Assembly (NCBI GenBank): GCA_050253335.1
Contig: JBFWJG010000005.1
Span: 1,585 to 65,584 of the forward strand
Source of the DNA: Deferribacterales bacterium
GTDB lineage: Bacteria; Chrysiogenota; Deferribacteres; Deferribacterales; Geovibrionaceae
Direction: 5' to 3'
Length of the DNA: 64,000 nucleotides
In this document: positions 20,189 to 45,018 of the stretch, piece by piece
How positions within the stretch are numbered: position 1 is the stretch's first letter
Layout: every line of letters starts with the position of its first letter
Notes under the pieces: model-generated
The model's database searches: none
What the model was told of the DNA's origin: nothing
The model's input: the letters and a program-made list of their open reading frames with translations, nothing else
Position numbers and translations under genes: made by a program

Positions 20189-20976
20189 CTTGGGATTTAA
20201 GTTTTATAAGTGAAGAATGTCTTACTGAACATATTACTGCTACTATTTGTAAATATGGCGAAAAACTGGAATCTTTTGATTTAAATAAATTTAATAGCAA
20301 TATAGTAGACCCAATAAAATTACTTTTTGATAAAACAGTTTATCGTGTTACTTGGGAAGATATCATAAAAAATGAAATTTTCAGACAACGTGATAAATCA
20401 AATAATAATGATATTGGATACTTTCATCAAAAAATATTTAAATATATTACTGGCTGTGAGGTTCCTGAAGTTGGTTGGGATGTAGTTTATAAGAATGAAC
20501 ATGGGATTATATTACCTGAAGGGGACACCGTTCATACAATTTATGTTGAAATGAAGAATAAACATAATACGATGAATTCAGCATCTTCAAGTAAAACATA
20601 CATGAAAATGCAAAGTCAGATTTTAGACAATGACGACTGTGCGTGTTTTCTGGTTGAAGCAATTGCAAAAAAATCTCAAAACATAAAGTGGGCGGCGACC
20701 GTTGATAATAAAAAAGTGCAACATCGGCTAATTCGCAGGGTGAGTTTAGATCAGTTTTACACTCTTGTTACTGGTCAACAAGATTCATTCTATAAGCTTT
20801 GCATGGCTTTACCAGATATTATTGAAAAGGTTGTTAGTGGCACATCGGAAGTTTCAATCCCTCAAGACACAGTTGTAGATGAATTAAAAGCTATAGCGGA
20901 TACAAATAAAATTTCCTTTGCAATGGCCATTTATATGCTTGGCTTTAGTAGTTATAATGGATTTAAACAATCTTGA
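20185..20976 (+). CDS. Type II restriction endonuclease, Eco47II-like
   Basis: Coupled to the MTase (ATGA overlap); DPIKLLFD, NNDIGYFHQ, GWDV, EMKNKHNTMNS match my recollection of the Eco47II family. Confidence 0.82.
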   Translation: MTWDLSFISEECLTEHITATICKYGEKLESFDLNKFNSNIVDPIKLLFDKTVYRVTWEDIIKNEIFRQRDKSNNNDIGYFHQKIFKYITGCEVPEVGWDVVYKNEHGIILPEGDTVHTIYVEMKNKHNTMNSASSSKTYMKMQSQILDNDDCACFLVEAIAKKSQNIKWAATVDNKKVQHRLIRRVSLDQFYTLVTGQQDSFYKLCMALPDIIEKVVSGTSEVSIPQDTVVDELKAIADTNKISFAMAIYMLGFSSYNGFKQS

Positions 20977-20991
20977 TATTGTTTAGATTTT

Positions 20992-21023
20992 TGTCTGGTG
21001 CCTCTATTTATAGGCACCAGACA
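20992..21023. terminator. Bidirectional terminator between the RM pair and dapL
   Basis: Perfect 12-bp stem TGTCTGGTGCCT/AGGCACCAGACA with AT-rich flanks. Confidence 0.7.
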
Positions 21024-21037
21024 TTAAATATATTGAT

Positions 21038-29671: not shown

Positions 29672-29688
29672 TTGCATACTGTATACAA
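29672..29688. promoter_or_regulatory. Operator-like palindrome upstream of nuoA
   Basis: TTGCATAC-T-GTATACAA (8-1-8, one mismatch), downstream of a TTGACA at 29643. Confidence 0.45.
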
Positions 29689-29704
29689 AATACAGAGGTG
29701 TGGT

Positions 29705-30058
29705 ATGAATGAGTATTTGCCAGTCGCAATCCTTATGCTGATTGCAGGCGCGATAGGCGCCATCATGATGTTTATGGGCGGTCTTATACGTCCGAAAAAG
29801 TACGATAAGGTTAAAAACTCCGTTTACGAATGCGGTATGCCGGAGTTCTCGGATGCCAGAAAAAGGTACAACGTCAGGTTCTACATAGTCGCCCTGCTTT
29901 TTGTTCTCTTCGATGTAGAAATAGTGTTTCTTTATCCGTGGGCTGTTGCTTTCGGAGATATAGGGCTTTACGGGCTTGTCGCTATGTTCCTGTTCCTGAT
30001 AATTCTTGTCATCGGATTTCTGTATGAGTGGAAAAAAGGAGCTCTGGAATGGGTGTAA
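29705..30058 (+). CDS. nuoA: NADH-quinone oxidoreductase subunit A
   Basis: [25 protein letters not shown]. Confidence 0.96.
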
Positions 30059-30525
30059 TGACGAACAAACTGCCGGACAATGTTATCACCACAACGGTGG
30101 ACAGTGTCATCAACTGGGGAAGAAAATCGTCTATCTGGCCTGTGACCTTCGGTCTGGCCTGTTGCGCTATTGAAATGATGGCTACGGGCGCCGCGAAGCA
30201 TGACCTTGACAGGCTTGGTATAATTTTCCGTGCCACACCCCGTCAGGCGGATCTCATGATCGTCGCCGGAACCGTTACGCGCAAGATGGCTCCCATCGTA
30301 CGCAAAGTGTGGGACCAGATGCCCGAACCCAAATGGTGCATAGCCATGGGAAGCTGCGCTACAAGCGGCGGAATATACGATACTTACTCCACGGTTCAGG
30401 GTGTTGATGAGATTCTCCCCGTGGATTTTTACGTTCCCGGCTGTCCTCCCCGTCCTGAAGCTCTTCTTGACGCTATCGTCGAGCTTCAGAAAAAAATCAT
30501 GACTGAAAAAGTGCTTAGGAAATAG
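30049..30525 (+). CDS. nuoB: NADH-quinone oxidoreductase subunit B
   Basis: [31 protein letters not shown]. Confidence 0.96.
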
Positions 30526-30534
30526 GGGGCGGCA

Positions 30535-31032
30535 ATGAATTTTACCGAACTAACCACACAGCTTGAACAGCTTTTTCCCGGCAAGCTGAACTGTTACACA
30601 CAGTTCGGCTGTAATTTTGTCAGGGTTAAGGATGATTCGGCTTATAAAAGTGTTCTCCGTGCGCTGAAAGAGAAATTCTCCTTCAAATACATGGTGGACG
30701 TTGTGGCCACGCACTGGCCCAAGAAAGCCGACAAGTTTGAAGTCACAAACAACCTCTACTCAATCGAGAACAAGCTCAGGGTGTTTGTGAAGCTTTCAAG
30801 ACCCGACCACGTCTTCCCCACGATTACTGATATATGGAAAGGCGCCGACCTCATGGAGAGGGAAGAGTACGACCTTATGGGAATCGTATTCGAAGGTCAC
30901 CCCGATCTGAGAAGAGTTCTTCTCCCTGATTTCTTTGAGGGGCACCCGCTCAGGAAAGACTTCCCTCTGAAAGAGAGGAAGTGGTTCAACAAGACTGACG
31001 AGCAGCGTCTCGGTATCAAGTTCACCAAATAA
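30535..31032 (+). CDS. nuoC: NADH-quinone oxidoreductase subunit C
   Basis: [29 protein letters not shown]. Confidence 0.95.
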
Positions 31033-31048
31033 GGGGTTGGAGACGGTT

Positions 31049-32236
31049 ATGCAGAACATTAACAATAACGTAGCCGAAGTGGTTACCGTCAACATGGGAC
31101 CCCAGCACCCCAGTACTCACGGGGTTCTGAGGCTTGTTGTCGATCTCGACGGCGAAACAATAGTAAACGTTACCCCCGATGTGGGTTATCTTCACAGGGG
31201 AACTGAAAAGCTTGCGGAAAACAGGACTTACCATCAGTTTATCCCCCTCACGGACAGGCTGGACTATCTTTCACCTCTGTCCAACAATCTTGCCTACTGC
31301 CTCGCCGTGGAAAAGTTCTTCGGGTTAAAAATCCCCGAAAGAGCAGACTACATGAGGGTTATATACGCCGAGCTTTCGCGTATCGCCAGCCACCTTGTCT
31401 GGATAGCGACTCACGCTCTTGACATAGGCGCGATGACGGTTTTCCTCTATGCCTTCCGCGAGAGGGAGCGCGTGCTTGATATGTTCGAGTGCGCCACAGG
31501 CCAGAGGATGACAAGCTCATGGATCAGAATCGGCGGCGTTCGCGAAGACGCTCCCGAGGAGTTCTTCAAGCTTGCCAAATCCTTCGTTGATGAGTTTGAC
31601 GGTTTCGTTGATCTTTATGAAAACCTCCTCACCAACAACAGGATATGGAAAATGAGAACCATCGGCATCGGTATGCTTAATGCTGATGACGCTCAGGACT
31701 ACGGCACAAGCGGCCCCCTCATGAGAGGCGCAGGTCTTGATTTCGACCTCAGACGTGACGAGCCGTACTGCTGTTATGACAAATTCAAGTTCGAAGTACC
31801 CACTCAGCCCGAGGGGGATACTTACGCACGTTATAAAGTGAGGATGAAGGAGCTTCGCGAGTCGAATAAAATTGTCGCTCAGGCTCTTGAAAATCTTCCC
31901 GAAGGACCCGTTATGACGGACGACCCCAGAGTGGCTATGCCTTCTCACGAGGACGTTTACGAAAGAATGGAATCCCTTATCAGAAGATTCTACCTCATAT
32001 CAAAAGGTTTCCGCCCTCCCAAGGGTGAAACTTATCAGGGAATCGAGGCGCCCAAAGGCGAGCTCGGCTTCTATATCGTCAGCGAAGGAGAGGAAAGGCC
32101 CTACAGGCTTAAAATCCGTGCTCCTTCCTATGTGAACCTCGGCGTGCTTAACCACATGGCCAAAGGTCACATGCTCGCAGACCTTGTCGCGATCATCGGT
32201 ACAAACGATGTTGTTCTCGGCGAGATAGACAGGTAG
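31049..32236 (+). CDS. nuoD: NADH-quinone oxidoreductase subunit D
   Basis: NMGPQHPSTHGVLRL, GYLHRG, EAPKGELG, C-terminal GEIDR; no NiFe Cys motifs. Confidence 0.96.
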   Translation: MQNINNNVAEVVTVNMGPQHPSTHGVLRLVVDLDGETIVNVTPDVGYLHRGTEKLAENRTYHQFIPLTDRLDYLSPLSNNLAYCLAVEKFFGLKIPERADYMRVIYAELSRIASHLVWIATHALDIGAMTVFLYAFRERERVLDMFECATGQRMTSSWIRIGGVREDAPEEFFKLAKSFVDEFDGFVDLYENLLTNNRIWKMRTIGIGMLNADDAQDYGTSGPLMRGAGLDFDLRRDEPYCCYDKFKFEVPTQPEGDTYARYKVRMKELRESNKIVAQALENLPEGPVMTDDPRVAMPSHEDVYERMESLIRRFYLISKGFRPPKGETYQGIEAPKGELGFYIVSEGEERPYRLKIRAPSYVNLGVLNHMAKGHMLADLVAIIGTNDVVLGEIDR

Positions 32237-32248
32237 GGGGGCGCGAAA

Positions 32249-32773
32249 ATGGCGGAAGTTAAAGCGGTTGTGGAAGAGGTTCAGGAAAGAACCCCCGAAG
32301 AGCTTGACTGGACAAAGTGTGATGCGATATGCGCCCAGTACGCAGGTTTCAAAGGCGCTACCATCCCCGTGCTCCAGAAGGTTCAGGATGCCTACGGCTA
32401 TCTTTATAAAGAGCTTGTGGAGAGAGTGAGCGAAAACCTCAACATCTCCTCGCACACCCTGTACGGCGTAATCACTTTTTACGCTCAGTTTTACACAAAG
32501 CCCAGAGGCAAATATGTCATCAGGGTATGCAGGGGAACGGCGTGCCACGTTAAGGGTTCCGGAAGGATCTCGGAAGTTGTTTTCGAGGAATTCGGAATCA
32601 GAAACGGCGAAACCGATGAAGCAAAACTCTTCACCCTTGAAGAGGTTTCATGCATCGGAGCCTGCGGAATGGCGCCCGTTATTATGGTAAACGATAAAAC
32701 TCACGGTAACCTCACGCCGGAGGAATCCAGGAAAATATTCAGGGATTACGCCTCCGGTAAGATGGAAGCGTAG
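32249..32773 (+). CDS. nuoE: NADH-quinone oxidoreductase subunit E (HydC/BfuA-like 2Fe-2S)
   Basis: VCRGTACHVKG, CIGACGMAP. Confidence 0.93.
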   Translation: MAEVKAVVEEVQERTPEELDWTKCDAICAQYAGFKGATIPVLQKVQDAYGYLYKELVERVSENLNISSHTLYGVITFYAQFYTKPRGKYVIRVCRGTACHVKGSGRISEVVFEEFGIRNGETDEAKLFTLEEVSCIGACGMAPVIMVNDKTHGNLTPEESRKIFRDYASGKMEA

Positions 32774-32783
32774 GGACAGGCAT

Positions 32784-34574
32784 ATGAGCGAGTATAAAGT
32801 CGAACAGATAGAAGTACACGTGTGTATGGGAACCGCGGGAGTCGCCTCCGGCGGTGATGCCGTTATGGCAGCCCTTAACAGTGAGTTTGAAAAACGCGGC
32901 CTGGTAAACACCGATGTCAAGGAGCGCAACTGCAAAGCCAAACAGACCGGCTGCAGGGGGCTCTGCGCCAGAGATGTTCTTATCGACGTGTATATCCCCG
33001 GACAGGGGCCTGTAACTTACGAACACGTGACGGCGGAAATGGTTCCCACAATAATCGAGGAGCACATCATTGGCGGTGAAATTGTCACCAAATGGGCTGC
33101 CAAGAAGGACTATTTCGAATTTTACGATAAACAGAAGCGCTATGTTCTCAATGACTGCGGAAAAGTTGACCCCGACAGCCTTGAGGACTACATAGCCCAC
33201 GGCGGCTATGACGCTCTTAAAAAGTCTCTGAAAATGACCTCCGAAGAGGTTATTGACGAAGTCAAAAAGTCCGGTCTCAGAGGCAGGGGGGGCGGCGGTT
33301 TCCCCACAGGACTTAAATGGACATTCTGCCGCAACTCTCCGGGAGATCTCAAGTATCTTATCTGCAACGCGGATGAGGGCGACCCCGGCGCGTTCATGGA
33401 CAGATCAATAATTGAGGGCAACCCCCACGCAGTTATAGAAGGAATGCTGATAGCGGCCTACGCAATAGGCTGCAAGGAAGGCTACATATACTGTCGTGCG
33501 GAATATCCCCTTGCTATCAAAAGGGTTAAAAAGGCCCTCATAGACGCGGAAAAAGCAGGCTATCTCGGCGACAACGTTCTCGGAAGCGGCTTTGAGTTTC
33601 ACCTCAAGCTGAAAGAGGGAGCGGGCGCTTTCGTCTGCGGAGAGGAAACGGCTCTCATCGCCTCCATCGAAGGCGAAAGGGGAATGCCCAGATCCAGACC
33701 CCCCTTCCCCGCTGTGAAAGGTCTCTGGCAGAAACCCTCAAACGTTAACAACGTTGAGACTTTCGCCAACCTTCCCGTTATCATCCTCAACGGCGCGGAC
33801 TGGTACGCAAACATAGGAACAGAGAAGTCCAAGGGAACAAAAATCTTCGCCCTTTCAGGCAAGGTTAAGTCCACGGGCCTTATCGAGGTTCCCATGGGAA
33901 TTACCGTGCGTGAGCTGATTTTCGAGGTCGGCGGCGGCATTCCCAAGAAAAGAAAGTTCAAAGCGGTTCAGCTCGGCGGTCCCTCAGGCGGCTGTCTTAC
34001 CGAAGCGCACCTTGATACAAAGATAGACTACGACTCGCTCATCGCCGCAGGCGCGATGATGGGCTCCGGAGGCGTGGTTGTTCTTGATGAAACCAACTGT
34101 ATGGTGAACGTTGCTCAGTTCTTCCTTACCTTCACACAGAGGGAGTCATGCGGAAAATGCATCCCCTGCCGTGTCGGTACAAAAACCATGCTGGACATCC
34201 TCGATAGGATAACATCCGGCAAGGGAAGGGAAGGCGATATCGAAAGGCTGGAATCCCTGGCGAGCGATATCAAGATAGCTTCACTCTGCGGTCTCGGACA
34301 AACGGCTCCCAACCCTATTCTTACCACAATCAGGTATTTCAGGGACGAGTACGAGGCGCACATCTTCAAACAGAAATGTCCCGCAAGGGAATGCCCCGAG
34401 CTCATCGAGTTCGTGGTTGTGGATGAAAGATGCAAGAAGTGCGGTATCTGCAAAAAGGTCTGCCCCGTTGACGCTATAACGTGGGAGAAGGGACAGTTTG
34501 CATACATCGACAAGGCTAAGTGCGTTAAGTGCCGTGAGTGCATAGTGAACTGCCCGTTCAACTCAATAGATTAA
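32784..34574 (+). CDS. nuoF: Long NuoF (HydB/BfuB architecture)
   Basis: SGLRGRGGGGFPTG, NADEGDPGAFMDR, ESCGKCIPCR, N-terminal Trx-like domain, C-terminal 2x[4Fe-4S]. Confidence 0.93.
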   Translation: MSEYKVEQIEVHVCMGTAGVASGGDAVMAALNSEFEKRGLVNTDVKERNCKAKQTGCRGLCARDVLIDVYIPGQGPVTYEHVTAEMVPTIIEEHIIGGEIVTKWAAKKDYFEFYDKQKRYVLNDCGKVDPDSLEDYIAHGGYDALKKSLKMTSEEVIDEVKKSGLRGRGGGGFPTGLKWTFCRNSPGDLKYLICNADEGDPGAFMDRSIIEGNPHAVIEGMLIAAYAIGCKEGYIYCRAEYPLAIKRVKKALIDAEKAGYLGDNVLGSGFEFHLKLKEGAGAFVCGEETALIASIEGERGMPRSRPPFPAVKGLWQKPSNVNNVETFANLPVIILNGADWYANIGTEKSKGTKIFALSGKVKSTGLIEVPMGITVRELIFEVGGGIPKKRKFKAVQLGGPSGGCLTEAHLDTKIDYDSLIAAGAMMGSGGVVVLDETNCMVNVAQFFLTFTQRESCGKCIPCRVGTKTMLDILDRITSGKGREGDIERLESLASDIKIASLCGLGQTAPNPILTTIRYFRDEYEAHIFKQKCPARECPELIEFVVVDERCKKCGICKKVCPVDAITWEKGQFAYIDKAKCVKCRECIVNCPFNSID

Positions 34575-34585
34575 GGGATATGGAT

Positions 34586-36835
34586 ATGCAGATGGTAACC
34601 TTGAAAATAGACGGAATACAGGTTGAGGTGCCGAAGGATTACACAATCCTTCAGGCGGCGGAAAAGGCCGGGGTGCATATCCCCGTTCTCTGCCACGATG
34701 CGCGCCTGAACCCCTTCGGTGCATGCAGGGTGTGTCTTATCGAGGCTGTGGGCAACCCCAGAATGATGACGGCGTGCACAACGCCCGTCGCCCCCGATAT
34801 GGACATCCTCACCAACACCGAAAAGCTCCAGAGGATCAGGAAAACTGTGATTGAGCTTCTGCTTGTGAACCACCCCCTTGAGTGCCCCGTGTGCGATAAG
34901 GGCGGCGAGTGCACGCTTCAGGATCTCACTTACGAGGTCGGCCTCACAAAGGTGCGCTTCGATGCAAAGCCCGCGGATACTCCCGTTGACCACACCAACC
35001 CCTTCATCGAAAGAGATGTTGACAGGTGTGTTCTCTGCGGACGCTGCGTAAGGATATGCGACGAAGTGGTGAACATACAGGCGATAAGCTTCATAAACCG
35101 CGGTATGGAAACCATGATCGGAACAGCCTTCGATCAGCCGTGGAACTGCGAATTCTGCGGACAGTGCATAAGCGTCTGCCCCGTGGGTTCGCTCAACAAC
35201 AGAGTTTATCTTTTCAAAAACAGGCCGTGGAACCTTGAAAAAACAGATTCCGTATGCGGTCTCTGCGGCTGCGGCTGTTATATAGAGCTTGAAACCGAAG
35301 GCAACGAGCTTTACAGAATGGGCGAGCTCCCCGAAAAGGGCGCAAACCACGGCAATCTCTGCGCCAAAGGCAGATTCGGCTTCGAATTTGTCAACAGCGT
35401 GAAGCGTGAAACCTCGGCAAAAATCAAGTCAGCCGGCGAGCTTGCCGATGCCGACTTCGATCAGGCTGTGGTCACAATTGCTGAAAAAGTGAAGAGCATC
35501 AAAGCTCAGCACGGAGCTGACTCCGTTGCTGTTCTCGTTTCGCCGAGGCTGACAAACGAGGAAGCCTTCCTTGCGAAGAAGCTGGCGAAGGATGTTCTCG
35601 GAACAGGCGGCATGTATGCCCTTGAACCTCACACATCACTCCCCGAGGCAACATACGCGGACATAGAAAAAAGCGACGCCGTCGCTGTCCTCAACATAGA
35701 CGTAACTGAAGCCAACCCGATTCTCGGCCTTGCGGTGAGAGCCGCTGCCAGAATGAACGAGGCTCCTCTTTATGTCTTCTACCCTTCCGAAACTGCTTTG
35801 AAAAGGCTGATCGAAAAACAGTTCACCGGAACTCCGGATGAAGTTTACGCCAGCATGACAAGGCTTGTTGAAGGGCAGGGAGAAGAGGCCGCAGTGCTTG
35901 AGGTTCTCAAAAAGGCCGAAAAGCCCGTTGCTGTCTACAACCCCTACAATGAAGCGGATCTCTGGTTTGTTTCAGAACTGAAAAAACAGGTTCCGGCACT
36001 TAAACTCGCTGCGGCAAGATCCAAGGCGAACTCACAGGGTGTCGTTGACATGGGCGCTCTGGATGCCGCGAAGCTGAAAGAAGGAATACAGAACAAAACA
36101 ATAAAGGCTCTCATATGCTTAGGTGAAAACCCCGCTGTGAGAACAGGCTGGGCGGAACTTTCACTGGATTCCCTTGAGCTGCTCGCCGTTACGGATCCTT
36201 TCATGAGCGAAACCGCGAAGAAAGCCTCTGTTTACATCCCCGTTGCGACATACGCGGAGAAAGACGGCAGCTTCACCAGCCTTGAGGGAAGGGTTCAGTC
36301 GGTTAATAAGGCGCTCTGCAAAGGGCTTAAGACCGATGCCGAAGTCATTTCCGCACTTGCGGCAAGGCTCGGCGGCAGTCTGACTTCCTGCTCATGCGAG
36401 GCCAGAGAGCTTATCCGCAAAGAGATTCCGCTTTACAAAGACGCCGACTTTGACGGCGGCCTTATAAGCTACCCCTATGCGGTAAAAGGCGAATTCGAAA
36501 AGCCTGCGAAAGCGGCTGCGGGAGAGGGCACATACTTCCTCTACCCCTCATCACTCAGACTTCATTCAGGCTCATACACCAGATGGTCTCCCGACCTCGC
36601 CAAAGTTTACGGCGAAGCCAAGCTTGAGATTTCCCCCGCTGATGCGGAGGCGCTCGGTCTCAGCGACGGAGCGGCGGTGAACGTGAGCGCTGCGGGAATC
36701 ACAAAGACTTTCAAGGTTCATGTGGAGAAACACATAACGAAAGGCTGTGTCGCCCTTCCTGAGGACTATGCCGATACGGCTGTGTTCTTTGGCAAAGGCA
36801 GATACCCGAAAGTGGCTCTGGGTAAAAAAGGTTGA
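34586..36835 (+). CDS. nuoG: NADH-quinone oxidoreductase subunit G
   Basis: IPVLCH..GACRVC..ACTT, HPLECPVCDKGGEC, CVLCGRCVRIC, CEFCGQCISVCP, CGLCGCGC..LCAKG; degenerate molybdopterin-oxidoreductase body. Confidence 0.93.
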   Translation: MQMVTLKIDGIQVEVPKDYTILQAAEKAGVHIPVLCHDARLNPFGACRVCLIEAVGNPRMMTACTTPVAPDMDILTNTEKLQRIRKTVIELLLVNHPLECPVCDKGGECTLQDLTYEVGLTKVRFDAKPADTPVDHTNPFIERDVDRCVLCGRCVRICDEVVNIQAISFINRGMETMIGTAFDQPWNCEFCGQCISVCPVGSLNNRVYLFKNRPWNLEKTDSVCGLCGCGCYIELETEGNELYRMGELPEKGANHGNLCAKGRFGFEFVNSVKRETSAKIKSAGELADADFDQAVVTIAEKVKSIKAQHGADSVAVLVSPRLTNEEAFLAKKLAKDVLGTGGMYALEPHTSLPEATYADIEKSDAVAVLNIDVTEANPILGLAVRAAARMNEAPLYVFYPSETALKRLIEKQFTGTPDEVYASMTRLVEGQGEEAAVLEVLKKAEKPVAVYNPYNEADLWFVSELKKQVPALKLAAARSKANSQGVVDMGALDAAKLKEGIQNKTIKALICLGENPAVRTGWAELSLDSLELLAVTDPFMSETAKKASVYIPVATYAEKDGSFTSLEGRVQSVNKALCKGLKTDAEVISALAARLGGSLTSCSCEARELIRKEIPLYKDADFDGGLISYPYAVKGEFEKPAKAAAGEGTYFLYPSSLRLHSGSYTRWSPDLAKVYGEAKLEISPADAEALGLSDGAAVNVSAAGITKTFKVHVEKHITKGCVALPEDYADTAVFFGKGRYPKVALGKKG

Positions 36836-36864
36836 AAGACATTAAAGATATATGAGGTAGAGGA

Positions 36865-37848
36865 ATGTTGCTCCCTATAGTTTTCACAATAATCAAGATA
36901 CTGATCATTGTAACTGTAATCCTCCTCGCGGTGGCATACATGACGTATGCCGAGCGTAAGGTTATAGGCGCAATGCAGGTGCGTCTTGGGCCGATGCATA
37001 CCGGACCTTACGGTCTCCTTCAGCCCATCGCGGACGCGGTGAAGCTGATCGCAAAGGAAGACCTTACGCCCGATATGGTTGACAGACCGGTATTCATCCT
37101 GGCTCCCCTGCTTACGATGGTTCCGGCGCTGGCAGGATTCGCCGTTATCCCCTTCGCCGACAACTTCACAATGTTCGGCATGGAGATAAAGCCCTACATA
37201 ACTGACCTTAACATCGGTCTGCTTTATGTTCTGGCAATTTCGTCCGTGGGCACCTACGGCGTTATCATGTCCGGCTGGGCTTCAAACTCAAAGTACGCCC
37301 TTCTCGGCAGCTTGCGTTCTTCGGCTCAGGTTCTGAGCTACGAAACAGCAATGGGTCTTGCCCTTGTGGCGCCTGTTCTGCTGGCCGGTTCTCTCTCTCT
37401 CAGGGAGATAACCCTCGCTCAGTCGGAGATGTGGTTTGTTGTTCCGCAGATAGTGGCTTTCGTGGTTTACGTTATAGCCGCCATAGCAGAAACAAACAGA
37501 GCGCCCTTCGACCTTGCGGAAGCTGAGACCGAAATCGTTGCGGGTTTCCATGTGGAATACTCCTCAATGAAGTTCGCCCTCTTCTTCCTCGGCGAATACG
37601 CAAATATGTACCTTGTTTCCACAATCGCCGTTGTTATGTTCCTCGGCGGATGGAACGGACCCTTCCTGCCTCCTCTGGTCTGGTTCGTAATCAAGGTTCT
37701 GTTCATTATGTTTATCTTCCTCTGGCTGAGAGCCACTCTCCCCAGACTCCGCTTTGACCAGCTTATGAGTCTCGGCTGGAAGGTACTTATACCGATTGCC
37801 CTTGCCAATCTTATGATAACGGCAATCGTGGTTCACATTGTCAGGTAG
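36865..37848 (+). CDS. nuoH: NADH-quinone oxidoreductase subunit H
   Basis: ERKVIG, QPIADAVK, ETNRAPFDLAEAE, LPRLRFDQLM. Confidence 0.97.
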   Translation: MLLPIVFTIIKILIIVTVILLAVAYMTYAERKVIGAMQVRLGPMHTGPYGLLQPIADAVKLIAKEDLTPDMVDRPVFILAPLLTMVPALAGFAVIPFADNFTMFGMEIKPYITDLNIGLLYVLAISSVGTYGVIMSGWASNSKYALLGSLRSSAQVLSYETAMGLALVAPVLLAGSLSLREITLAQSEMWFVVPQIVAFVVYVIAAIAETNRAPFDLAEAETEIVAGFHVEYSSMKFALFFLGEYANMYLVSTIAVVMFLGGWNGPFLPPLVWFVIKVLFIMFIFLWLRATLPRLRFDQLMSLGWKVLIPIALANLMITAIVVHIVR

Positions 37849-37857
37849 GGGTGAAGC

Positions 37858-38325
37858 ATGAAAAATATATTCGATACTCTGCTCTTAACTGAAATTTTTC
37901 AGGGTCTTGGAATTACTCTGAAACATTTGTTCAAGAAGAAAGTAACGTACAAATACCCTTATGAGGATACTCCGATATTCCCCAGATTCAGGGGTGTTCA
38001 GTACATTAAAACCCATGAGAACGGCGCGACAAAATGTGTCGGCTGCTATCTCTGTCAGAAGGTATGCCCTTCAGAGTGCATACACATAGTGACAGACTGC
38101 GGACCGAACGGCGAGAGGCTCATCCGTAAATACGAGCTTGACCTTTCCCGCTGCATCTACTGCGGCTTCTGCGAAGAAGCCTGCCCGGTTGACGCGGTTC
38201 ACATGGGGCGTAACTATCACACGACAGACTCAACCAGAGACAATTATGTGATAAACATGAAAACTCTTTCTGAAAACTACAAAAAGGAACTGGCTAACGC
38301 ACAGGCTAAAGGAGAGCAGTTATGA
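37858..38325 (+). CDS. nuoI: NADH-quinone oxidoreductase subunit I
   Basis: CVGCYLCQKVCP, CIYCGFCEEACP. Confidence 0.95.
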   Translation: MKNIFDTLLLTEIFQGLGITLKHLFKKKVTYKYPYEDTPIFPRFRGVQYIKTHENGATKCVGCYLCQKVCPSECIHIVTDCGPNGERLIRKYELDLSRCIYCGFCEEACPVDAVHMGRNYHTTDSTRDNYVINMKTLSENYKKELANAQAKGEQL

Positions 38326-38825
38326 TGGCGCAGATTGCATTTTACATTCTTGCTGGTTTGGCCGTGGTTTCAGCTCTCGGTGTAATCACCCGTGAGAACC
38401 CCGTTCACTCGGCTCTCTGGATGCTTCTTACGTTTTTCAGCGTTGCGGGAATTTTTGTTCAGCTCGGTGCGGAATTCGTTGCGGCGATTCAGGTTCTCGT
38501 TTACGCAGGCGCGATTTTGGTTCTGTATCTCTTCGTGGTTATGCTGCTAAACCCCCGTTCGGGCGGTTTCATCAGGATGCCCGCGAAATACATAATCGGA
38601 TCTGCTGTTTCGATTGTGGTCTTCTTTCAGGTAGCCATAACAATCTGGAGCTCCGGAATCTTCAAAAACGGCGCTATCGGACCGCTGCCCTATGCTGAAG
38701 GCATGAACAACGTCAGAGCATACGGAAACGTTCTGTTCACAAAGTATCTGGTACCCTTTGAAATCGCTTCCATACTTCTTCTTGTCGCGATGATCGGTGC
38801 CATCGTAATAGCAAGAAAGGACTAG
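38322..38825 (+). CDS. nuoJ: NADH-quinone oxidoreductase subunit J
   Basis: QVLVYAGAILVL, FEIASILLLVAMIGA. Confidence 0.95.
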   Translation: MMAQIAFYILAGLAVVSALGVITRENPVHSALWMLLTFFSVAGIFVQLGAEFVAAIQVLVYAGAILVLYLFVVMLLNPRSGGFIRMPAKYIIGSAVSIVVFFQVAITIWSSGIFKNGAIGPLPYAEGMNNVRAYGNVLFTKYLVPFEIASILLLVAMIGAIVIARKD

Positions 38826-38834
38826 GAGGGGACT

Positions 38835-39140
38835 ATGGAATTGACGCTGGCTCATTACCTTATACTCAGCGCGGTTATATTCGCCCTTGGAATGGCAGGG
38901 GTTCTGATAAGGAAAAACCTCATCGTTATGTTCATGTCGCTGGAGCTTATGCTTAACGCGGTGAACATCAACCTCGCTGCTTTTTCCAACTATCTGCAGG
39001 ATATGACCGGACAGATTTTCATAGTCTTCGTCATGGCGGTGGCCGCTGCCGAAGCTGCAGTGGGACTCGCGCTCATTATCAGTCTGTTCAGAAACAAACA
39101 GACTATTAATGCCGAAGAACTTAATATCATGAGAGGATAG
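38835..39140 (+). CDS. nuoK: NADH-quinone oxidoreductase subunit K
   Basis: [19 protein letters not shown]. Confidence 0.96.
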
Positions 39141-39149
39141 GGGTAGGAT

Positions 39150-41063
39150 ATGCATTTGGAGGTCTTGATACTTCTCGGGCCGTTGGTTGCTTTTCTTATC
39201 AACGGTCTGTTCGGAAGGCTCTACATCAAAAATAACGCGCACTTCGTCGCGATTGCGGGTGTCGGTCTTTCATGGATTGTGTCAATCATCACTTTTTTCA
39301 GAGTGATGGGCGGGCACAGTGTGGATGCCACCCTATATAACTGGGTTGTTGCGGGCAAATACAGTGTTCCCTTCGGAATACTTGTGGATCCGCTTACTGC
39401 GATAATGCTCATAGTAGTAACCACCGTCAGCACGATGGTGCACATCTACTCCATGGGCTATATGCATGACGACGAGGGATACTGGAGATTCTTTACTTAT
39501 CTTTCAGTGTTCACCTTCTCAATGCTCATTCTTGTTATGGGGAACAACTTCCTCATGCTTTTCGTGGGCTGGGAGCTTGTGGGTCTTTCTTCTTACCTGC
39601 TTATCGGCTTCTGGTTCTATAAAAAGAGCGCTGCTGACGCATGTAAGAAAGCTTTCGTTATGAACAGAGTGGGCGACTTCGGTTTCTATATCGGTCTCCT
39701 GCTTGTTATAATCACATTCAAAGGTCTTAACTACAGCGATGCTTTCCAGTATGAGTCTATTCAGGCGATAAAAGCCAGCACATACACTGTGTTCGGCATG
39801 CAGTTCAGCCTGATAGACCTTATGACGCTCGGCCTCTTCTGCGGTGCTATGGGTAAATCTGCCCAGTTCCCGCTGCATACTTGGCTTCCCGACGCGATGG
39901 AAGGCCCCACACCCGTTTCGGCACTTATCCACGCCGCAACGATGGTTACCGCAGGGGTTTACATGGTTGCACGCTGCAACGCTCTGTTCTCCGAAGCGCA
40001 CATAACCAGCATGGTTGTTGTGTATGTCGGTATGTTCACAGCGTTTCTGGGCGCCACAATCGGTCTTACCCAGTACGACCTTAAACGCATACTTGCGTAC
40101 TCAACAGTGTCTCAGCTTGGCTACATGATTATGGCCACAGGTGTGGGCGCTTATGTTGCGGGTATATTCCACCTGTTTACACACGCTTTCTTCAAGGGTC
40201 TGCTCTTCCTCTGCTCCGGTTCAGTTATGCACGCTATGCACAACGACCTCGACGTGAGAAAGATGGGCGGCCTGAAAAAGAAAATGCCCATTACATACTG
40301 GACTTACCTCATAGGCTGTATCGCCATTGCAGGTATTCCCCCCCTTGCGGGCTTCTGGTCAAAGGATGAGATCCTCGCCATGACCTTCGCAAACGGCCAT
40401 ATGTTCCCTTGGTTCGTGGCCACTGTTGTTGCGGGCATGACGGCTTTCTATATGTTCCGCTCCTTCTTCCTTGTGTTTGAGGGAACGCCCAGAAACCAGC
40501 ATATGCACGACCACGCACACGAATCCCCCGCTACGATGACAGGTCCCCTTGTGTTCCTTGCCATCCTTTCGGTTCTCGCGGGCGCAGTATTCGGCTATCC
40601 GCTGGAAAACGGCTTCATACACCACTTCCTCGGGCCGGTGCTTACACCTGAGGGAGCGCATCCGCACCACCTTGAGCATTCAACGGCGCTTATGCTGATG
40701 ATACTCTCCATAGTGGTTGCTGCTGCGGGCATATTCATAAGCTGGCTGTACTACATTAAAGTTCCCTCACTGCCGGGAAAAACTGTCAAGGCATTCAAGC
40801 CCGTTCATACCTTCTTCTACAACAAGTGGTTCTTTGACGAGCTTTATGACGCGATTATCGTTTTCCCTATAGTGACAATTTCCAGATTCCTCTGGAGAGG
40901 CTTTGACGTAAACGTAATAGACTTCACCGTAAACGCATTCGGCAAGGTGCCGATGTTCCTCGGCGGAGTGGCAAGACACCTTCAGACTGGACGCATGCAG
41001 ACATACATCTTCACGATGGTTGTGGGCGTGATAGTTCTGTTCACAATATTCTACACGGTATAA
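39150..41063 (+). CDS. nuoL: NADH-quinone oxidoreductase subunit L
   Basis: GKSAQFPLHTWLPDAMEGPTPVSALIHAATMV, HAFFK. Confidence 0.97.
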   Translation: MHLEVLILLGPLVAFLINGLFGRLYIKNNAHFVAIAGVGLSWIVSIITFFRVMGGHSVDATLYNWVVAGKYSVPFGILVDPLTAIMLIVVTTVSTMVHIYSMGYMHDDEGYWRFFTYLSVFTFSMLILVMGNNFLMLFVGWELVGLSSYLLIGFWFYKKSAADACKKAFVMNRVGDFGFYIGLLLVIITFKGLNYSDAFQYESIQAIKASTYTVFGMQFSLIDLMTLGLFCGAMGKSAQFPLHTWLPDAMEGPTPVSALIHAATMVTAGVYMVARCNALFSEAHITSMVVVYVGMFTAFLGATIGLTQYDLKRILAYSTVSQLGYMIMATGVGAYVAGIFHLFTHAFFKGLLFLCSGSVMHAMHNDLDVRKMGGLKKKMPITYWTYLIGCIAIAGIPPLAGFWSKDEILAMTFANGHMFPWFVATVVAGMTAFYMFRSFFLVFEGTPRNQHMHDHAHESPATMTGPLVFLAILSVLAGAVFGYPLENGFIHHFLGPVLTPEGAHPHHLEHSTALMLMILSIVVAAAGIFISWLYYIKVPSLPGKTVKAFKPVHTFFYNKWFFDELYDAIIVFPIVTISRFLWRGFDVNVIDFTVNAFGKVPMFLGGVARHLQTGRMQTYIFTMVVGVIVLFTIFYTV

Positions 41064-41077
41064 GGGGGAGTTAAGAG

Positions 41078-42577
41078 ATGATGGAAAACATCCTTTCAAT
41101 ACTGATTTTCTTCCCGCTGGTTGCCGCTTTTGTCATCTTTCTGTTCTTCAGAGGCGGTAAAACCACAATGTGGGCGACTTTCATCGCCACAATTATTGAG
41201 TTCATCCTCACTATACCGCTGATGACCTCATTTGATAAGACGACGGCAGCAATGCAGTTTGTTGAAAAGGCAGACTGGATTCCCGCTCTGGGGATTCAGT
41301 ATTATGTAGGGGTTGACGGAATATCGATACTCATGATCTTCCTGACCACCCTGCTTACGGCGATTGCGGTTCTCGGCTCCTTCACCTATATCCAGAAGCG
41401 CCAGAGAGAGTTCTATCTCTCCCTGCTTGTACTGGAAACAGGGATGGTCGGCGTGTTCCTCGCCCTTGACTTCTTCCTTTTCTACATCTTCTGGGAAGCG
41501 ATGCTCATACCCATGTACCTTATAATAGGTGTCTGGGGCGGCAAAAGAAGAATCTATGCCGCGGTCAAGTTCTTCCTTTACACCCTTGCGGGTTCAGTGC
41601 TTATGATGCTTGCAATCATAGCCCTGTTCTTCAAGCACGGCGAGATTACAGGAGTCTACACTTTCGATATTATGGCAATCACCGCTCAGGCTGTTAAGTA
41701 CACAGCGGGATTCCAGACTATCATATTCCTTGCCTTCTTCCTCGGCTTCGCCATCAAGGTTCCCATGTTCCCGGTTCATACATGGCTTCCCGATGCGCAC
41801 GTTGAGGCGCCCACTGCGGGTTCGGTTATACTTGCGGGCGTACTGCTTAAAATGGGTACATACGGTTTCCTGAGGTTCTGCCTCCCCATCACTCCGGCGG
41901 CTTCCATAAGCTTCATGCCCTTTGTCGCGATCCTTTCCGTGATTGCGATTGTATACGGCGCGCTGGTTGCGATGGTGCAGAGCGATGTTAAAAAACTTGT
42001 CGCCTACTCCTCAGTGAGCCACATGGGTTTTGTTACTCTCGGTATCTACGCCATAAATCAGGCTGGCATCGAGGGCGGTATTCTCCAGATGTTCAACCAC
42101 GGTATAATAACAGGCGCGCTGTTCCTTCTGATCGGCGCTATATATGAAAGAACCCACACAAGGGAGATTTCGGAATACGGCGGTATCGCTGCAAGCGTAC
42201 CTATGTTCGCCACAATCTTCCTTATATTCACAATGGGTTCCATCGGTCTCCCCGGCATGGGCGCGTTCATCGGCGAGTTCCTTGTTCTTGTGGGCGCGTT
42301 CGAGGCTTTCAGCGACTACGCGATAATAGCCGCCAGCGGCGTTATCTTCGCCGCGGTCTACATGCTCTGGATGTACCAGAGAGTACTGTATGAAAGCCTT
42401 AATAAACGTTGGGAAAACCTCAAAGACATGAACCTCAGAGAGATAATCTATATTATGCCTCTCTTGATCATTGTTTTCTGGGTGGGTATATACCCTGAAA
42501 CTTTCACATCCTATATGCACGAAAGCGTGAAACACCTTGTTGAACAGGTATTCAGCGCCGGCGTGGCGATGAAATAA
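41078..42577 (+). CDS. nuoM: NADH-quinone oxidoreductase subunit M
   Basis: FWEAMLIP, IKVPMFPVHTWLPDAHVEAP, LAGVLLKMG. Confidence 0.97.
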   Translation: MMENILSILIFFPLVAAFVIFLFFRGGKTTMWATFIATIIEFILTIPLMTSFDKTTAAMQFVEKADWIPALGIQYYVGVDGISILMIFLTTLLTAIAVLGSFTYIQKRQREFYLSLLVLETGMVGVFLALDFFLFYIFWEAMLIPMYLIIGVWGGKRRIYAAVKFFLYTLAGSVLMMLAIIALFFKHGEITGVYTFDIMAITAQAVKYTAGFQTIIFLAFFLGFAIKVPMFPVHTWLPDAHVEAPTAGSVILAGVLLKMGTYGFLRFCLPITPAASISFMPFVAILSVIAIVYGALVAMVQSDVKKLVAYSSVSHMGFVTLGIYAINQAGIEGGILQMFNHGIITGALFLLIGAIYERTHTREISEYGGIAASVPMFATIFLIFTMGSIGLPGMGAFIGEFLVLVGAFEAFSDYAIIAASGVIFAAVYMLWMYQRVLYESLNKRWENLKDMNLREIIYIMPLLIIVFWVGIYPETFTSYMHESVKHLVEQVFSAGVAMK

Positions 42578-42585
42578 GGAGGCTG

Positions 42586-44016
42586 ATGATGACACCGCAG
42601 TTATTTAATGACATCATCACGGTTTACCCCGAAATTCTGATGACGATATTTGCACTTACACTTATCGTCATAGATGTGGTTGCGGGTGATAAAATGAAGG
42701 CCAGCGTAGGCTACTTCGGCATAGCATTTGTCGCGATAGTGGCTCTGCTCTGCCCCGCCGGACCTTTTATCGGCTTCAGCAACATGCTTATATGGGACAA
42801 CTTCAGCTATGTTTTCTTCCTTATATTCGCTATGGCTTATACCCTGACTACATTGGGCTCCATCGAGTATCTGAAAGATAAAAACATGCTCAAAGGCGAA
42901 ATATACATAGTTATGTTCTTCAGCCTGATCGGCATGATGTTCATGGTAAGCGCAAATGACCTTACCATCTTCTATGTCGGTCTGGAGACAATGGCTATCT
43001 CCATGTATGTTCTCGCAGGTTTCAACAAGCACTGCCTGAAGTCAAATGAAGCAGGCGTTAAGTATTTCCTTATGGGCGCATTCTCCTCAGGTCTTTTCCT
43101 GTACGGGCTTACGTTCATTTACGGACTCACAGGAAGCCTTACCTACACCGATATAGCCGCGGCTCTTCAGGGGCACAGCGGTTCGCTCGGAATCAAGTTC
43201 GGCCTTCTGCTTATGCTTGTGGGCTTCGCGTTTAAAATATCCGCAGTTCCCTTCCATATGTGGGCTCCGGATGTTTACACAGGCTCACCCACTCCTATCG
43301 CGGGCTTTATGACTGTTGCTCCCAAGGCTGCTGCCTTCGGCGCGCTGATCCGCTTCACATGGGTAGCCATCGCCCCCGCTTCCGAACAGTGGACGCTTTT
43401 CTTCACTATCCTCGCCGTTCTCACTATGACATACGGCAACCTTGTTGCTCTCGCGCAGGAGAATGTGAAGAGAATGCTTGCCTACTCAGCCATAGCTCAT
43501 GCGGGCTACATGCTGATAGGCCTTGTCACCATGACTCCGGAAGGGATCAGGGCAATCACGATCTACATGCTGATCTACAGCTTTATGAACATAGGCGCTT
43601 TCACTGTTATCGGTCTGCTCAAAAACAAAGGCATGATAGACGATGAAAGAATAGAGAGCTTCGCCGGTCTTTCCAAAAAGAACCCGCTTGTTGCTCTTGC
43701 CATGCTGCTTTTCATGTTCTCTCTGGCGGGAATACCTCCGCTTGCGGGATTCGTGGGCAAGTTCTATATCTTTATCGCAGCCATCAAAGCTGAGGTATAC
43801 TGGCTTGCCATAGTGGGCGTTCTTAACAGTGCCCTTGCCTGCTACTACTATATGCGTGTGACAATATACATGTATTTCAAAGAGCCGGAATACGAAACAG
43901 AGCTTACGCTTAAAGCACCCAGCTTCATCGCCACTTTTATAGCGGCTGTGCTTGTGGTTCTGGTTGGTTTCTTCCCCTCTTTCTTCGTAAATCTCGTAAG
44001 CTCGCTTACGGTGTAA
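42586..44016 (+). CDS. nuoN: NADH-quinone oxidoreductase subunit N
   Basis: EAGVKYF, FKISAVPFHMWAPDVY, KRMLAYSAIAH. Confidence 0.97.
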   Translation: MMTPQLFNDIITVYPEILMTIFALTLIVIDVVAGDKMKASVGYFGIAFVAIVALLCPAGPFIGFSNMLIWDNFSYVFFLIFAMAYTLTTLGSIEYLKDKNMLKGEIYIVMFFSLIGMMFMVSANDLTIFYVGLETMAISMYVLAGFNKHCLKSNEAGVKYFLMGAFSSGLFLYGLTFIYGLTGSLTYTDIAAALQGHSGSLGIKFGLLLMLVGFAFKISAVPFHMWAPDVYTGSPTPIAGFMTVAPKAAAFGALIRFTWVAIAPASEQWTLFFTILAVLTMTYGNLVALAQENVKRMLAYSAIAHAGYMLIGLVTMTPEGIRAITIYMLIYSFMNIGAFTVIGLLKNKGMIDDERIESFAGLSKKNPLVALAMLLFMFSLAGIPPLAGFVGKFYIFIAAIKAEVYWLAIVGVLNSALACYYYMRVTIYMYFKEPEYETELTLKAPSFIATFIAAVLVVLVGFFPSFFVNLVSSLTV

Positions 44017-44025
44017 CGGGGTAAA

Positions 44026-44490
44026 ATGATGGATGCATCTGTAAGAAAAGCGCTTGAAGAGGCAAAAGAAAAGAAAGCACTGTCCTATGAATTTTATGAC
44101 AAGCTGCTTAAAGTCGTGAGTGATCTCAGCACCAAGGAACTTATAAAAGATCTTATGGAGCAGAAGAAAAAGCATGTTGAGATCATTAAGCATGCGCTTG
44201 AGACAGGTTCGCTGGAAAACCTCGGTCTTGATGTAAGCTGCCGCTGGAAAGGTCTTGGGATCGGCCAGGGTGTGAAGCCTGAGGTGGTCACCGGCGAGCT
44301 TACGGTTCAGGATGTGCTTCTGATAGCCATCAGATACGAAGATAACTCTGTGAAGTACTATGAAGATCTTTCTGAAAAGTTTAAGGGAACCCCCGCAGGG
44401 GAGGTTTTCTTTAAGCTGGCAAGCGATGAGGCATGTCACAGAAACGATGTTCAGCGCATGTATGACGACATAGTAAATCTTGAGAATTAA
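44026..44490 (+). CDS. Ferritin-like (rubrerythrin-type) protein at the end of the nuo operon
   Basis: AIRYEDNSVKYY ... DEACH helix pair; starts 9 nt after nuoN. Confidence 0.8.
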   Translation: MMDASVRKALEEAKEKKALSYEFYDKLLKVVSDLSTKELIKDLMEQKKKHVEIIKHALETGSLENLGLDVSCRWKGLGIGQGVKPEVVTGELTVQDVLLIAIRYEDNSVKYYEDLSEKFKGTPAGEVFFKLASDEACHRNDVQRMYDDIVNLEN

Positions 44491-44520: not shown

Positions 44521-44547
44521 GGCGGGGGCTGATGCTCCCGCCTTTTT
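44521..44547 (+). terminator. Intrinsic terminator of the nuo operon
   Basis: GGCGGG..CCCGCC stem followed by TTTTT; a weaker G-U-rich hairpin at 44491-44514 precedes it. Confidence 0.8.
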
Positions 44548-44558
44548 CATTTTACGGT

Positions 44559-45018
44559 AAAAATTTACCATCCATGGAAATTTTTACACACGCTCGCGGT
44601 CTGCAAAGCAGACCTTCGCTACGCACGGCGTGCTCCCTTCCATGGCAGCATGTTTATAAGCTGCTTGCTGCTCTGGTTACGCTTGCGTTCCTCGCGTTCG
44701 CTGCGGTACGCGCTCCACGGGCAACATCCATGTGCCTGTTATTCGGCTTCGCTCCGCACGGCGCAGTATCTGTCTTTCCGCTCCAAAAACTACATCCTGT
44801 GTTTTTTCCGCACACGCTCGCGCCGAAGCAAGTTCGGCTTCGCTCCGCACGACGCAGTTCCGTCCATGGAACTGTTTATGTCATTCTGAGCGTCAGCGAA
44901 GAATCTCTTATTTATAAATAGTTCAGAAACGGCACATCCTGTCCGTTTCCTCACACGCTCGCGCCGAAGCAAGTTCGGCTTCGCTTCGCACGGCGCAGTT
45001 CCATCCATGGAACTGTTT
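44559..45018 (-). repeat. Modular palindromic repeat cluster A (7 GGA-loop hairpins)
   Basis: Units at 44559-44650, 44785-44877 and 44926-45018, a partial unit at 44741-44767, a diverged unit at 44651-44740 and a 28-nt module at 44880-44907; 44811-44877 and 44952-45018 differ at 3 of 67 positions. Confidence 0.92.

Follow-up and report, generated by a model that had tools for sequence, protein, structure and literature searches.

A complete complex I operon of the Nuo-Bfu class, with a predicted bifurcating-type NuoEFG head, in a Geovibrio genome

INTRODUCTION

Schut et al. (2022; Front Microbiol 13:946711, PMC9304861) defined from genomes a 14-subunit complex, "Nuo-Bfu," as a type 3 Bfu enzyme, named the Deferribacteres among its carriers, and proposed that NADH and reduced ferredoxin together drive menaquinone reduction with proton pumping. 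Here, we describe a nuo operon of this kind in a stretch of 64,000 nucleotides (positions 1,585 to 65,584 of contig JBFWJG010000005.1, assembly GCA_050253335.1; hereafter, the window) from a Geovibrio host (Deferribacterota). We focus on nuoE, nuoF, and nuoG, located at 32249 to 36835 of the window, which encode the head of the predicted enzyme.

The BfuB subunits of Nuo-Bfu fall into clade 38 (Deferribacteres and Proteobacteria) and clade 39, with GSU0338-0351 of Geobacter sulfurreducens as an example (PMC9304861). The Geobacter operon is essential on acetate/fumarate, and the canonical type-E complex I of the same organism is dispensable (PMC5585712). Membership in the Bfu family as a whole is defined by four domains in BfuB: the Nuo51 domain that binds flavin mononucleotide (FMN), SLBB, the NuoF 4Fe-4S domain, and a ferredoxin-type 4Fe-4S domain (PMC9304861). 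In the Bfu enzymes solved to date, the domain that carries clusters B3 and B4 is the ferredoxin-side branch (PMC12018979). Relatives found by experiment to be non-bifurcating lack the extra Fe-S domains rather than retaining them (PMC9304861; PMC13556243).

RESULTS

NuoF has the domains and cofactor ligands of a BfuB protein

The segment from 32249 to 36835 on the plus strand runs exactly from the start of nuoE to the stop of nuoG. An earlier note on this DNA had read it as a HydABC/BfuABC-type NuoEFG head, an assignment that full-length similarity, ligand sets, and phylogeny strongly support. The nuoF gene (32784 to 34574, plus strand) encodes a protein of 596 amino acids that is of the BfuB type by its motifs, Pfam domains, Protein Data Bank (PDB) matches, ligand alignment, and sequence identity. 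Every motif quoted in the earlier note was found (CMGTAG, GCRGLC, NADEGDPGAFMDR, FKAVQLGGPSGG, TNCMV, YEAHI, and KCPAREC), and so was the layout given there, with a thioredoxin-like N terminus (32808 to 33098, plus strand) and a C-terminal 2x[4Fe-4S] ferredoxin domain (34401 to 34571, plus strand; Pfam Fer4/Fer4_7, residues 544 to 595). The FMN/NADH core holds NADEGDPGAFMDR. Pfam recovered Complex1_51K, SLBB, NADH_4Fe-4S, and two Fer4 motifs; the four domains that define Bfu (PF01512, PF10531, PF10589, and PF00037/PF12838) all scored above their cut-offs.

The cofactor ligands are those of solved BfuB proteins. Cluster B1 (N3), a [4Fe-4S] cluster, is liganded by C456/459/462/502, and the pattern CX2CX2CX3CP occurs twice in the C-terminal domain, giving B3 (C550/553/556/560) and B4 (C580/583/586/590), each followed by Pro. 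At the hinge site (B2/Zn), C439, T477, H526, C532, and C537 align with C438, C476, H525, C531, and C536 of the NiFe enzyme (numbering from PMC9304861); short canonical NuoFs are missing most of these residues. The ligands of the flavobicluster (FMN/B1/C1, as defined in PMC12018979) are complete, comprising the NADEGDPGAFMDR loop as in the five solved BfuBs, the four B1 cysteines, and four cysteines in NuoE.

Sequence comparison placed NuoF closer to BfuB than to canonical NuoF over its entire length. Its best match in the PDB was 7t2r_B, the BfuB of the bifurcating NiFe-hydrogenase HydABCSL (808 bits, residues 9 to 595), and chains of NfnB, StnB, and FeFe HydB scored 663 to 765 bits. In contrast, canonical NuoFs from Thermus, Aquifex, and E. 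coli scored approximately 385 to 413 bits and aligned only over residues ~125 to 530. Identity was 62% over the full length to 7t2r_B versus 47% to the short NuoFs of nuo operons. The loop DEGDPGAFMDR is shared with all five solved BfuBs, whereas canonical NuoFs have DE[SG]E[PT]GT.KD[RH]. With 596 residues and two extra Fe-S domains, the protein lies outside the canonical N-module pattern (~420 to 450 residues, FMN and N3 only), and against TIGR01959 (nuoF_fam) it scored 520 bits, below the cut-off of 558.65. All eight B3/B4 cysteines (8/8) and the His and Cys residues of the hinge site are strictly kept from Deferribacterota to Desulfuromonadales at an overall identity of 63%, which would be unexpected if the domain had no function.

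A different arrangement was seen in three genomes of the same phylum but a different class (G001 to G003), each of which has two NuoF-type genes. The long form ends at approximately residue 538 without the C-terminal 2x[4Fe-4S] domain and is 50 to 51% identical to the NuoF described here; the short form is canonical (43 to 45%). These genomes could serve as a natural comparison for the contribution of the ferredoxin domain.

NuoE is BfuC-like, and the extra clusters of NuoG are not diagnostic

The nuoE product (32249 to 32773, plus strand) is also of the Bfu type (BfuC), with the [2Fe-2S] (C1/N1a) ligands C94, C99, C135, and C139. Among PDB matches, HydC, NfnC, and NiFe-BfuC scored 146 to 160 bits and the HydC proteins of T. 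maritima and of 7q4v scored 116 to 126 bits, compared to 48 to 105 bits for NuoE of canonical and mitochondrial complex I.

By domain matches and ligands, nuoG (34586 to 36835, plus strand) encodes a type 3 BfuA. The open reading frame as listed begins at a GTG at 34538, within nuoF, the stop codon of which lies at 34572 to 34574; the true start is more likely the ATG at 34586 or 34592, just past that stop. Ligands were found for N1b (C52/63/66/80; numbering of protein P0003 here and below), N5 (H112, C116/119/125), N4 (C164/167/170/214), an extra [4Fe-4S] cluster (C204/207/210/174), and N7 (C240/243/247/275). Thus, the two CxxCxxC motifs and the N7 motif reported for NuoG in the earlier note are present, the former as full CxxCxxCxxxC motifs. 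The NuoG motifs were, however, ruled out as a Bfu marker because a canonical complex I carries both. This enzyme, from a member of the Terriglobales (L048), has a short canonical NuoF, and its NuoG retains the extra cluster and N7. Three other canonical NuoGs have neither.

Scored against NCBIfam models, NuoG gave 422 bits as NuoG versus 192 bits as the formate dehydrogenase (Fdh) alpha subunit. It nevertheless aligns end to end with FdhA of Nitrospirota, with a 15-residue gap at the active-site segment NVDHCARLUHSS and approximately 130 further residues missing. The loss of this segment and of large parts of the pterin domain indicates that the pterin domain of NuoG is catalytically dead, as in ordinary NuoG.

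NuoF groups with bifurcating BfuB proteins

The earlier note had proposed a phylogeny of NuoF with the Bfu subtypes as a check. We built trees from the NuoF core (residues 125 to 530), sampling long NuoFs linked to nuo genes, non-nuo relatives of known genomic context, representatives at 50% identity, and the five solved BfuBs as sequences drawn from alignments, with short canonical NuoFs from nuo operons as the outgroup. A FastTree analysis of 188 rows and an IQ-TREE analysis of 61 rows (LG+C20) agreed. In the IQ-TREE analysis, the nuo-linked long NuoFs formed one clade (93/73), which was enclosed, together with 7t2r, 7q4v, 9n5u, 8oh5, and 9bov, in a clade with support of 98/98; these solved chains represent NiFe-HydB, FeFe-HydB, NfnB, and both StnB proteins. 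NuoF of the window thus falls inside the bifurcating BfuB clade, and the short canonical NuoFs fall outside it (100/98). Rooted with this outgroup, the trees suggest that complex I took up its head from the Bfu crown group and that the head is no primitive intermediate. Within the crown BfuB clade, the maximum-likelihood tree did not separate a sister relationship of Nuo-Bfu with Fdh-Bfu from one with Nfn/Stn.

The closest relatives not linked to nuo genes were BfuCBA modules of Nitrospirota (BfuB identity of 53 to 59%). No nuo genes were found within 10 kb of these modules (L019 to L029, L040, and L046), which were therefore ruled out as Nuo-Bfu enzymes resembling clade 39 of Schut et al.; two of them (L019 and L024) are selenocysteine-containing Fdh-Bfu modules. 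Both are from metagenome-assembled genomes (L019:9401-15883 and L024:9529-16962), have the gene order BfuC-BfuB-FdhA with an in-frame TGA selenocysteine codon in HCARLUHS, and directly adjoin formate-tetrahydrofolate ligase; L019 also has carbon monoxide dehydrogenase/acetyl-CoA synthase subunits upstream. From this gene neighborhood, the two modules look like formate dehydrogenases that serve the Wood-Ljungdahl pathway.

A HydABC/Bfu-type trio with a BfuB 53% identical to NuoF also occurs in NZ_CP168083.1, a sequence of 1.97 Mb named "Mycoplasma sp. P36-A1." Such a trio is unexpected for Mycoplasma, suggesting a misassigned name or an unusual mollicute.

The B5 site carries a clade-wide Cys-to-Gly change

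The N-terminal domain of NuoF is present, with C14, C57, and C61 at the B5 site. At the place of the second Cys of Cx4C enzymes, however, it has Gly19, so that the replacement of one N-terminal Cys pointed out in the earlier note is real (Cx4C to Cx4G). An extra Cys50 lies 7 residues upstream of C57, in the CxxxC pair. The combination of Cx4G and the extra upstream Cys was found in 143/143 sequences when the nuo-linked clade was taken together with its relatives in Nitrospirota. Among 150 representatives of 50%-identity clusters, the extra Cys was missing in 48 of the 50 that have Cx4C, and a third pattern, GxxxCG, seen in Nfn/Stn enzymes, was approximately as common as Cx4C. The Cys-to-Gly change is therefore clade-wide and no private defect of this NuoF.

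B5 is a [2Fe-2S] cluster in hydrogenases and is essential in T. kivui, where deletion of the B5 domain of HydABC abolishes bifurcation; in the Nfn-Bfu of T. sibiricus the site holds Zn, and the enzyme bifurcates all the same (PMC12018979). We do not claim Cys50 as a swapped-in B5 ligand. Thioredoxin-fold topology puts it at the far end of the strand from Cys57, and at a separation of 7 residues it may be too distant for such a role.

The head is embedded in a 14-gene complex I operon

As the earlier note had stated, the nuoA-N set is complete: Pfam and NCBIfam identified 14 contiguous genes at 29672 to 44016, all on the plus strand. Upstream of nuoE are nuoA (29672 to 30058; Oxidored_q4, E = 6e-39), nuoB (30028 to 30525; NCBIfam NuoB, 255 bits), nuoC (30535 to 31032; Complex1_30kDa, E = 9e-39), and nuoD (31037 to 32236; TIGR01962 NuoD, 576 bits, above the cut-off). 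NuoB has the ligands of cluster N2, including the tandem Cys45/46, and inspection of NuoD, the quinone-module subunit, recovered neither RxCGxC nor DPCxxC, bearing out the claim that it lacks NiFe-binding motifs. Together, the tandem N2 cysteines and the NiFe-motif-free NuoD mark the quinone module as that of a true NADH:quinone oxidoreductase. Downstream of nuoG lie nuoH (36865 to 37848; NADHdh, E = 1.5e-127), nuoI for clusters N6a and N6b (37858 to 38325; NCBIfam NuoI, 151 bits, above the cut-off), nuoJ (38322 to 38825; Oxidored_q3), and nuoK (38835 to 39140; Oxidored_q2), followed by the three antiporter-like subunits nuoL (39150 to 41063; Proton_antipo_M, Proton_antipo_N, and Proton_antipo_C), nuoM (41078 to 42577; Proton_antipo_M), and nuoN (42586 to 44016; Proton_antipo_M).

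A 15th gene on the same strand (44026 to 44490) encodes a ferritin-like, rubrerythrin-like protein of 154 amino acids (Pfam Rubrerythrin, E = 2.5e-9), the nearest solved relative of which is the Thermotoga diiron-carboxylate protein TM1526 (PDB 1vjx, E = 5e-8). It is followed by a terminator-like hairpin (44521 to 44552, plus strand; 9-bp stem with 8 GC pairs and a T-run), the strongest of the region and the probable end of the operon. Since the ferritin-like gene starts 10 nucleotides past nuoN and is followed by this hairpin, the transcription unit probably comprises 15 genes. The gene occupies the same place in 12 other Deferribacterales nuo operons (42 to 93% identity); its product may be an accessory subunit or factor of the Nuo-Bfu complex I.

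Two further observations concern the window rather than the operon. An open reading frame at 44532 to 44921 (129 amino acids) was rejected as a gene, because dozens of places on many contigs gave matches to its translation; it falls within a member of a dispersed intergenic repeat family of the genome (44532 to 45018). Separately, G+C content falls to 0.41 to 0.42 at 18001 to 22000, compared to ~0.50 in the rest of the window.

The operon encodes the sole complex I of its host and is conserved across the order

NuoF is 97% identical to its counterparts in Geovibrio thiophilus, Geovibrio sp. ADMFC3, and a Deferribacterales metagenome-assembled genome, and public annotation calls it simply NuoF. 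The nuoA-N order with a long NuoF is kept in approximately 20 Deferribacterales loci and in Desulfuromonas. The gene set is thus not unique, as the earlier note had allowed, and the class was published in 2022 with the Deferribacteres named. Of the 68 genomes scanned in this phylum, 33 carry a full-length NuoF copy with an identity of at least 76%, and a copy is absent from three families.

The host genome (2.58 Mb, 99.94% complete) contains one PF01512 gene and one NuoD. Given its near completeness, the Bfu-type head serves the only complex I of this organism. Five POR-family 2-oxoacid:ferredoxin oxidoreductase loci were found. MqnA/D are present and MenD was not found in the genome, which points to menaquinone synthesis by the futalosine route.

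Outside the window, the genome carries a complete nqrABCDEF set for Na+-NQR (contig C33:20798-26573) and rnfD'GEAB at a contig edge (C125:1-3177), cut by the contig start. We did not find rnfC anywhere in the assembly; it is probably merely unassembled. Nuo-Bfu, Nqr, and Rnf would accordingly give the host three NADH/ferredoxin enzymes that pump ions. With rnfD'GEAB and nqrA-F present, the idea of Nuo-Bfu as the only ferredoxin outlet was dropped.

DISCUSSION

What was observed directly (the genes present, their domains and ligands, the place of NuoF in the trees, the lack of a second copy in the genome, and the retention of the operon across the order) makes this locus a genuine member of a class described before, with a predicted function. 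It has BfuCBA amid a 14-gene nuoA-N cluster and a BfuA with clusters A1 to A5, as Nuo-Bfu was defined, and its NuoF sits in one clade with the Desulfuromonadales nuo-linked NuoFs and is 97% identical to that of Geovibrio thiophilus, as expected for clade 38. The coupling of NAD(H), ferredoxin, and quinone with proton pumping that the earlier note suggested had been put forward before, as the Nuo-Bfu hypothesis of Schut et al. (2022). Both class and hypothesis were already in the literature, and no new concept comes from the window. What is added here is one more member, from Geovibrio, along with the clade-wide B5 pattern, the finding that the NuoG motifs are non-diagnostic, the dead pterin domain, and the ferritin-like 15th gene.

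We put a probability of roughly 0.5 on the reading that the locus encodes a Nuo-Bfu member, i.e., a complex I of 14 subunits that pumps protons and reduces menaquinone, in which BfuCBA, a module found at the core of flavin/Fe-S electron-bifurcating enzymes, replaces the NADH-input module and confurcates electrons from NADH and ferredoxin. Following structural work on Bfu enzymes (PMC12018979), NADH would hand a hydride to the FMN of NuoF, and reduced ferredoxin from the 2-oxoacid:ferredoxin oxidoreductases of the host would dock at the C-terminal 2x[4Fe-4S] domain of the same subunit. Ferredoxin electrons would pass through B4, B3, and the mobile [2Fe-2S] cluster of NuoE to the flavobicluster, where they would merge with those of NADH, and the merged electrons would travel from B1 through NuoG (N1b, N4, and N5), NuoI, and N2 of NuoB to menaquinone. 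Ferredoxin binding, obligate coupling, and the direction of operation are the inferred parts of this scheme.

With potentials of approximately -280 mV for NADH, -500 mV for ferredoxin, and -74 mV for menaquinone (PMC9304861), NADH alone would yield ~0.41 eV per 2e-, and a mix of 1 NADH to 2 ferredoxins, at ~-390 mV, would yield ~0.63 eV per 2e-. By this estimate, only the mix would cover 4 H+ at a proton-motive force of ~150 mV. Electrons merged at ~-390 mV rather than ~-280 mV would therefore have enough drive for the full 4 H+/2e- against menaquinone. The reaction would be reversible, so that proton-motive force could drive the reduction of ferredoxin and NAD+. We hold the stricter form of the proposal more tentatively, at somewhat less than even odds: an enzyme that co-oxidizes NADH and reduced ferredoxin, reduces menaquinone with full pumping, and makes reduced ferredoxin by bifurcation when run in reverse.

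Several points weigh against confurcation. The searchable literature holds no biochemical or structural study of any Nuo-Bfu, in agreement with the earlier note, which knew of no biochemical proof, and no solved structure among the PDB matches of NuoF and NuoG joins BfuB to the membrane arm of complex I. Bifurcation requires the cofactor set, which may nevertheless not be sufficient for it. At B5, Gly19 stands where the hydrogenases have their second Cys. Finally, Nqr and the rnf genes give the host NADH-to-quinone and ferredoxin-to-NAD+ routes that bypass Nuo-Bfu, so its physiology does not force confurcation. These features could be accommodated by a plain NADH:menaquinone complex I that received its Bfu head by module exchange, in which NuoF would retain the Fe-S domains at its two ends as remnants with a structural, regulatory, or electron-storage role, and ferredoxin would be no substrate. 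The altered B5 ligands, the separate ferredoxin:NAD+ route, the second NADH:quinone enzyme, and the want of biochemical support for ferredoxin use in the searchable literature would all fit this explanation, and the canonical NuoG of the Terriglobales, with its extra cluster and N7, suggests that spare clusters can persist in the family. We regard it as a serious rival but as less likely than confurcation, given the strict retention of the B3/B4 cysteines and the hinge His and Cys residues from Deferribacterota to Desulfuromonadales and the lack of these domains in relatives that are non-bifurcating by experiment (PMC9304861; PMC13556243). The cofactor evidence for confurcation applies equally to an enzyme without obligate coupling, in which NADH at FMN and ferredoxin at B4/B3 would each reduce menaquinone alone. 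This would be a combined NADH:menaquinone and ferredoxin:menaquinone oxidoreductase, like the ferredoxin-dependent cyanobacterial NDH-1 with an NADH site added. Ferredoxin-producing oxidoreductases are abundant in the genome, and with a quinone far more positive than both donors (potentials from PMC9304861), neither half-reaction would need the other. In solved Bfu enzymes, however, the BfuC domain moves in response to NAD(H) and thereby gates the low-potential branch, which enforces coupling (PMC12018979); with NuoE of the BfuC type, we consider independent inputs improbable, though still a serious rival reading.

Direction is a further question, as complex I can run either way and so can Bfu enzymes (PMC9304861). 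Were reverse operation the main direction, proton-motive force would drive menaquinol oxidation and the head would bifurcate electrons to NAD+ and ferredoxin, supplying low-potential reductant for ferredoxin-dependent carboxylations or biosynthesis on H2 or quinone-level donors. The five POR-family enzymes could use reduced ferredoxin reductively, and moving electrons from ~-74 to ~-390 mV would cost ~0.63 eV per 2e-, near the energy of 4 H+ at ~150 to 160 mV. We nonetheless judge this a long shot: the homologous Geobacter operon is essential in acetate oxidation, which calls for forward operation (PMC5585712), reduced ferredoxin could be made from NADH by way of the rnf genes, and the window contains no pointer to autotrophy. 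The nearest non-nuo relatives of NuoF, the soluble Fdh-Bfu modules of Nitrospirota, and the end-to-end alignment of NuoG with their FdhA could also suggest that nuoEFG is a separate soluble Bfu enzyme (e.g., a formate dehydrogenase) lying inside the operon, with the 11-subunit membrane complex served by another donor. This seems barely credible, since NuoG lacks the 15-residue Sec-His segment and large pterin parts and so has no site for a third substrate, scores far higher as NuoG than as Fdh-alpha, and sits in a nuoD-E-F-G-H order kept across two phyla, in a genome with no other N-module.

If confurcation of NADH and ferredoxin is true, it would explain how Geobacter and Deferribacteres reoxidize the ferredoxin reduced by 2-oxoglutarate:ferredoxin oxidoreductase of the tricarboxylic acid cycle and how menaquinone-dependent anaerobes keep the full proton-pumping yield of complex I. 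Two great energy-coupling principles of anaerobes would then be joined in one machine, and no earlier respiratory complex would have been shown to pair flavin-based bifurcation with redox-driven proton pumping. The question was framed in 2022, and Geobacter sulfurreducens, with a homologous operon known to be essential, is the easier organism in which to address it.

Compared to the Nuo-Bfu of Schut et al., the locus has the same 14-gene operon, the same placement of BfuC/B/A at nuoE/F/G, a type 3 BfuA, the same phylum, and the same presumed menaquinone acceptor; NuoF is 63% identical to the nuo-linked NuoF of Desulfuromonas (L015), with no essential difference. Relative to Geobacter, Deferribacterales add the ferritin-like 15th gene, and this genome lacks the second, canonical complex I that Geobacter has. 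Against HydABCSL of Acetomicrobium mobile (7T2R/7T30), FeFe-HydABC, NfnABC, and StnABC, BfuB is collinear over its full length (57 to 62% identity), with the same NAD/FMN loop, the same B1, B3, B4, and hinge ligands, and a BfuC-like NuoE. The third substrate, however, is predicted to be membrane quinone, reached via the quinone module of complex I, rather than H2 or NADP+; B5 is Cx4G with an upstream Cys instead of Cx4C; and Thr takes the place of the NiFe enzyme's Cys476, as it does in FeFe enzymes.

With canonical complex I (Nqo1-3 of Thermus thermophilus and NuoEFG of E. coli), the locus shares the 14 core subunits, the tandem N2 cysteines, a NiFe-free NuoD, three antiporter-like subunits, and N1b, N4, N5, and N7 in NuoG. 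It differs in a NuoF ~150 residues longer, with an added thioredoxin-like N terminus, an added 2x[4Fe-4S] C terminus, and the Bfu loop, and in one additional [4Fe-4S] cluster in NuoG that would wire N7 to the chain. The NAD+/ferredoxin-dependent formate dehydrogenases of the Fdh-Bfu type (L019 and L024) share with it a BfuB 53 to 59% identical, Cx4G with the upstream Cys, and a BfuA collinear with NuoG across all five clusters, but they keep the HCARLUHS active site and full pterin domain that NuoG has lost in its membrane complex. A last parallel is the NDH-1 of cyanobacteria and chloroplasts, which lacks NuoEFG and binds ferredoxin through NdhS/NdhO-type subunits. The likeness is a functional analogy, in that ferredoxin electrons enter the quinone module and proton pump of a complex I (PMC9304861); in the Geovibrio operon, by comparison, a complete flavin-containing Bfu head is present.

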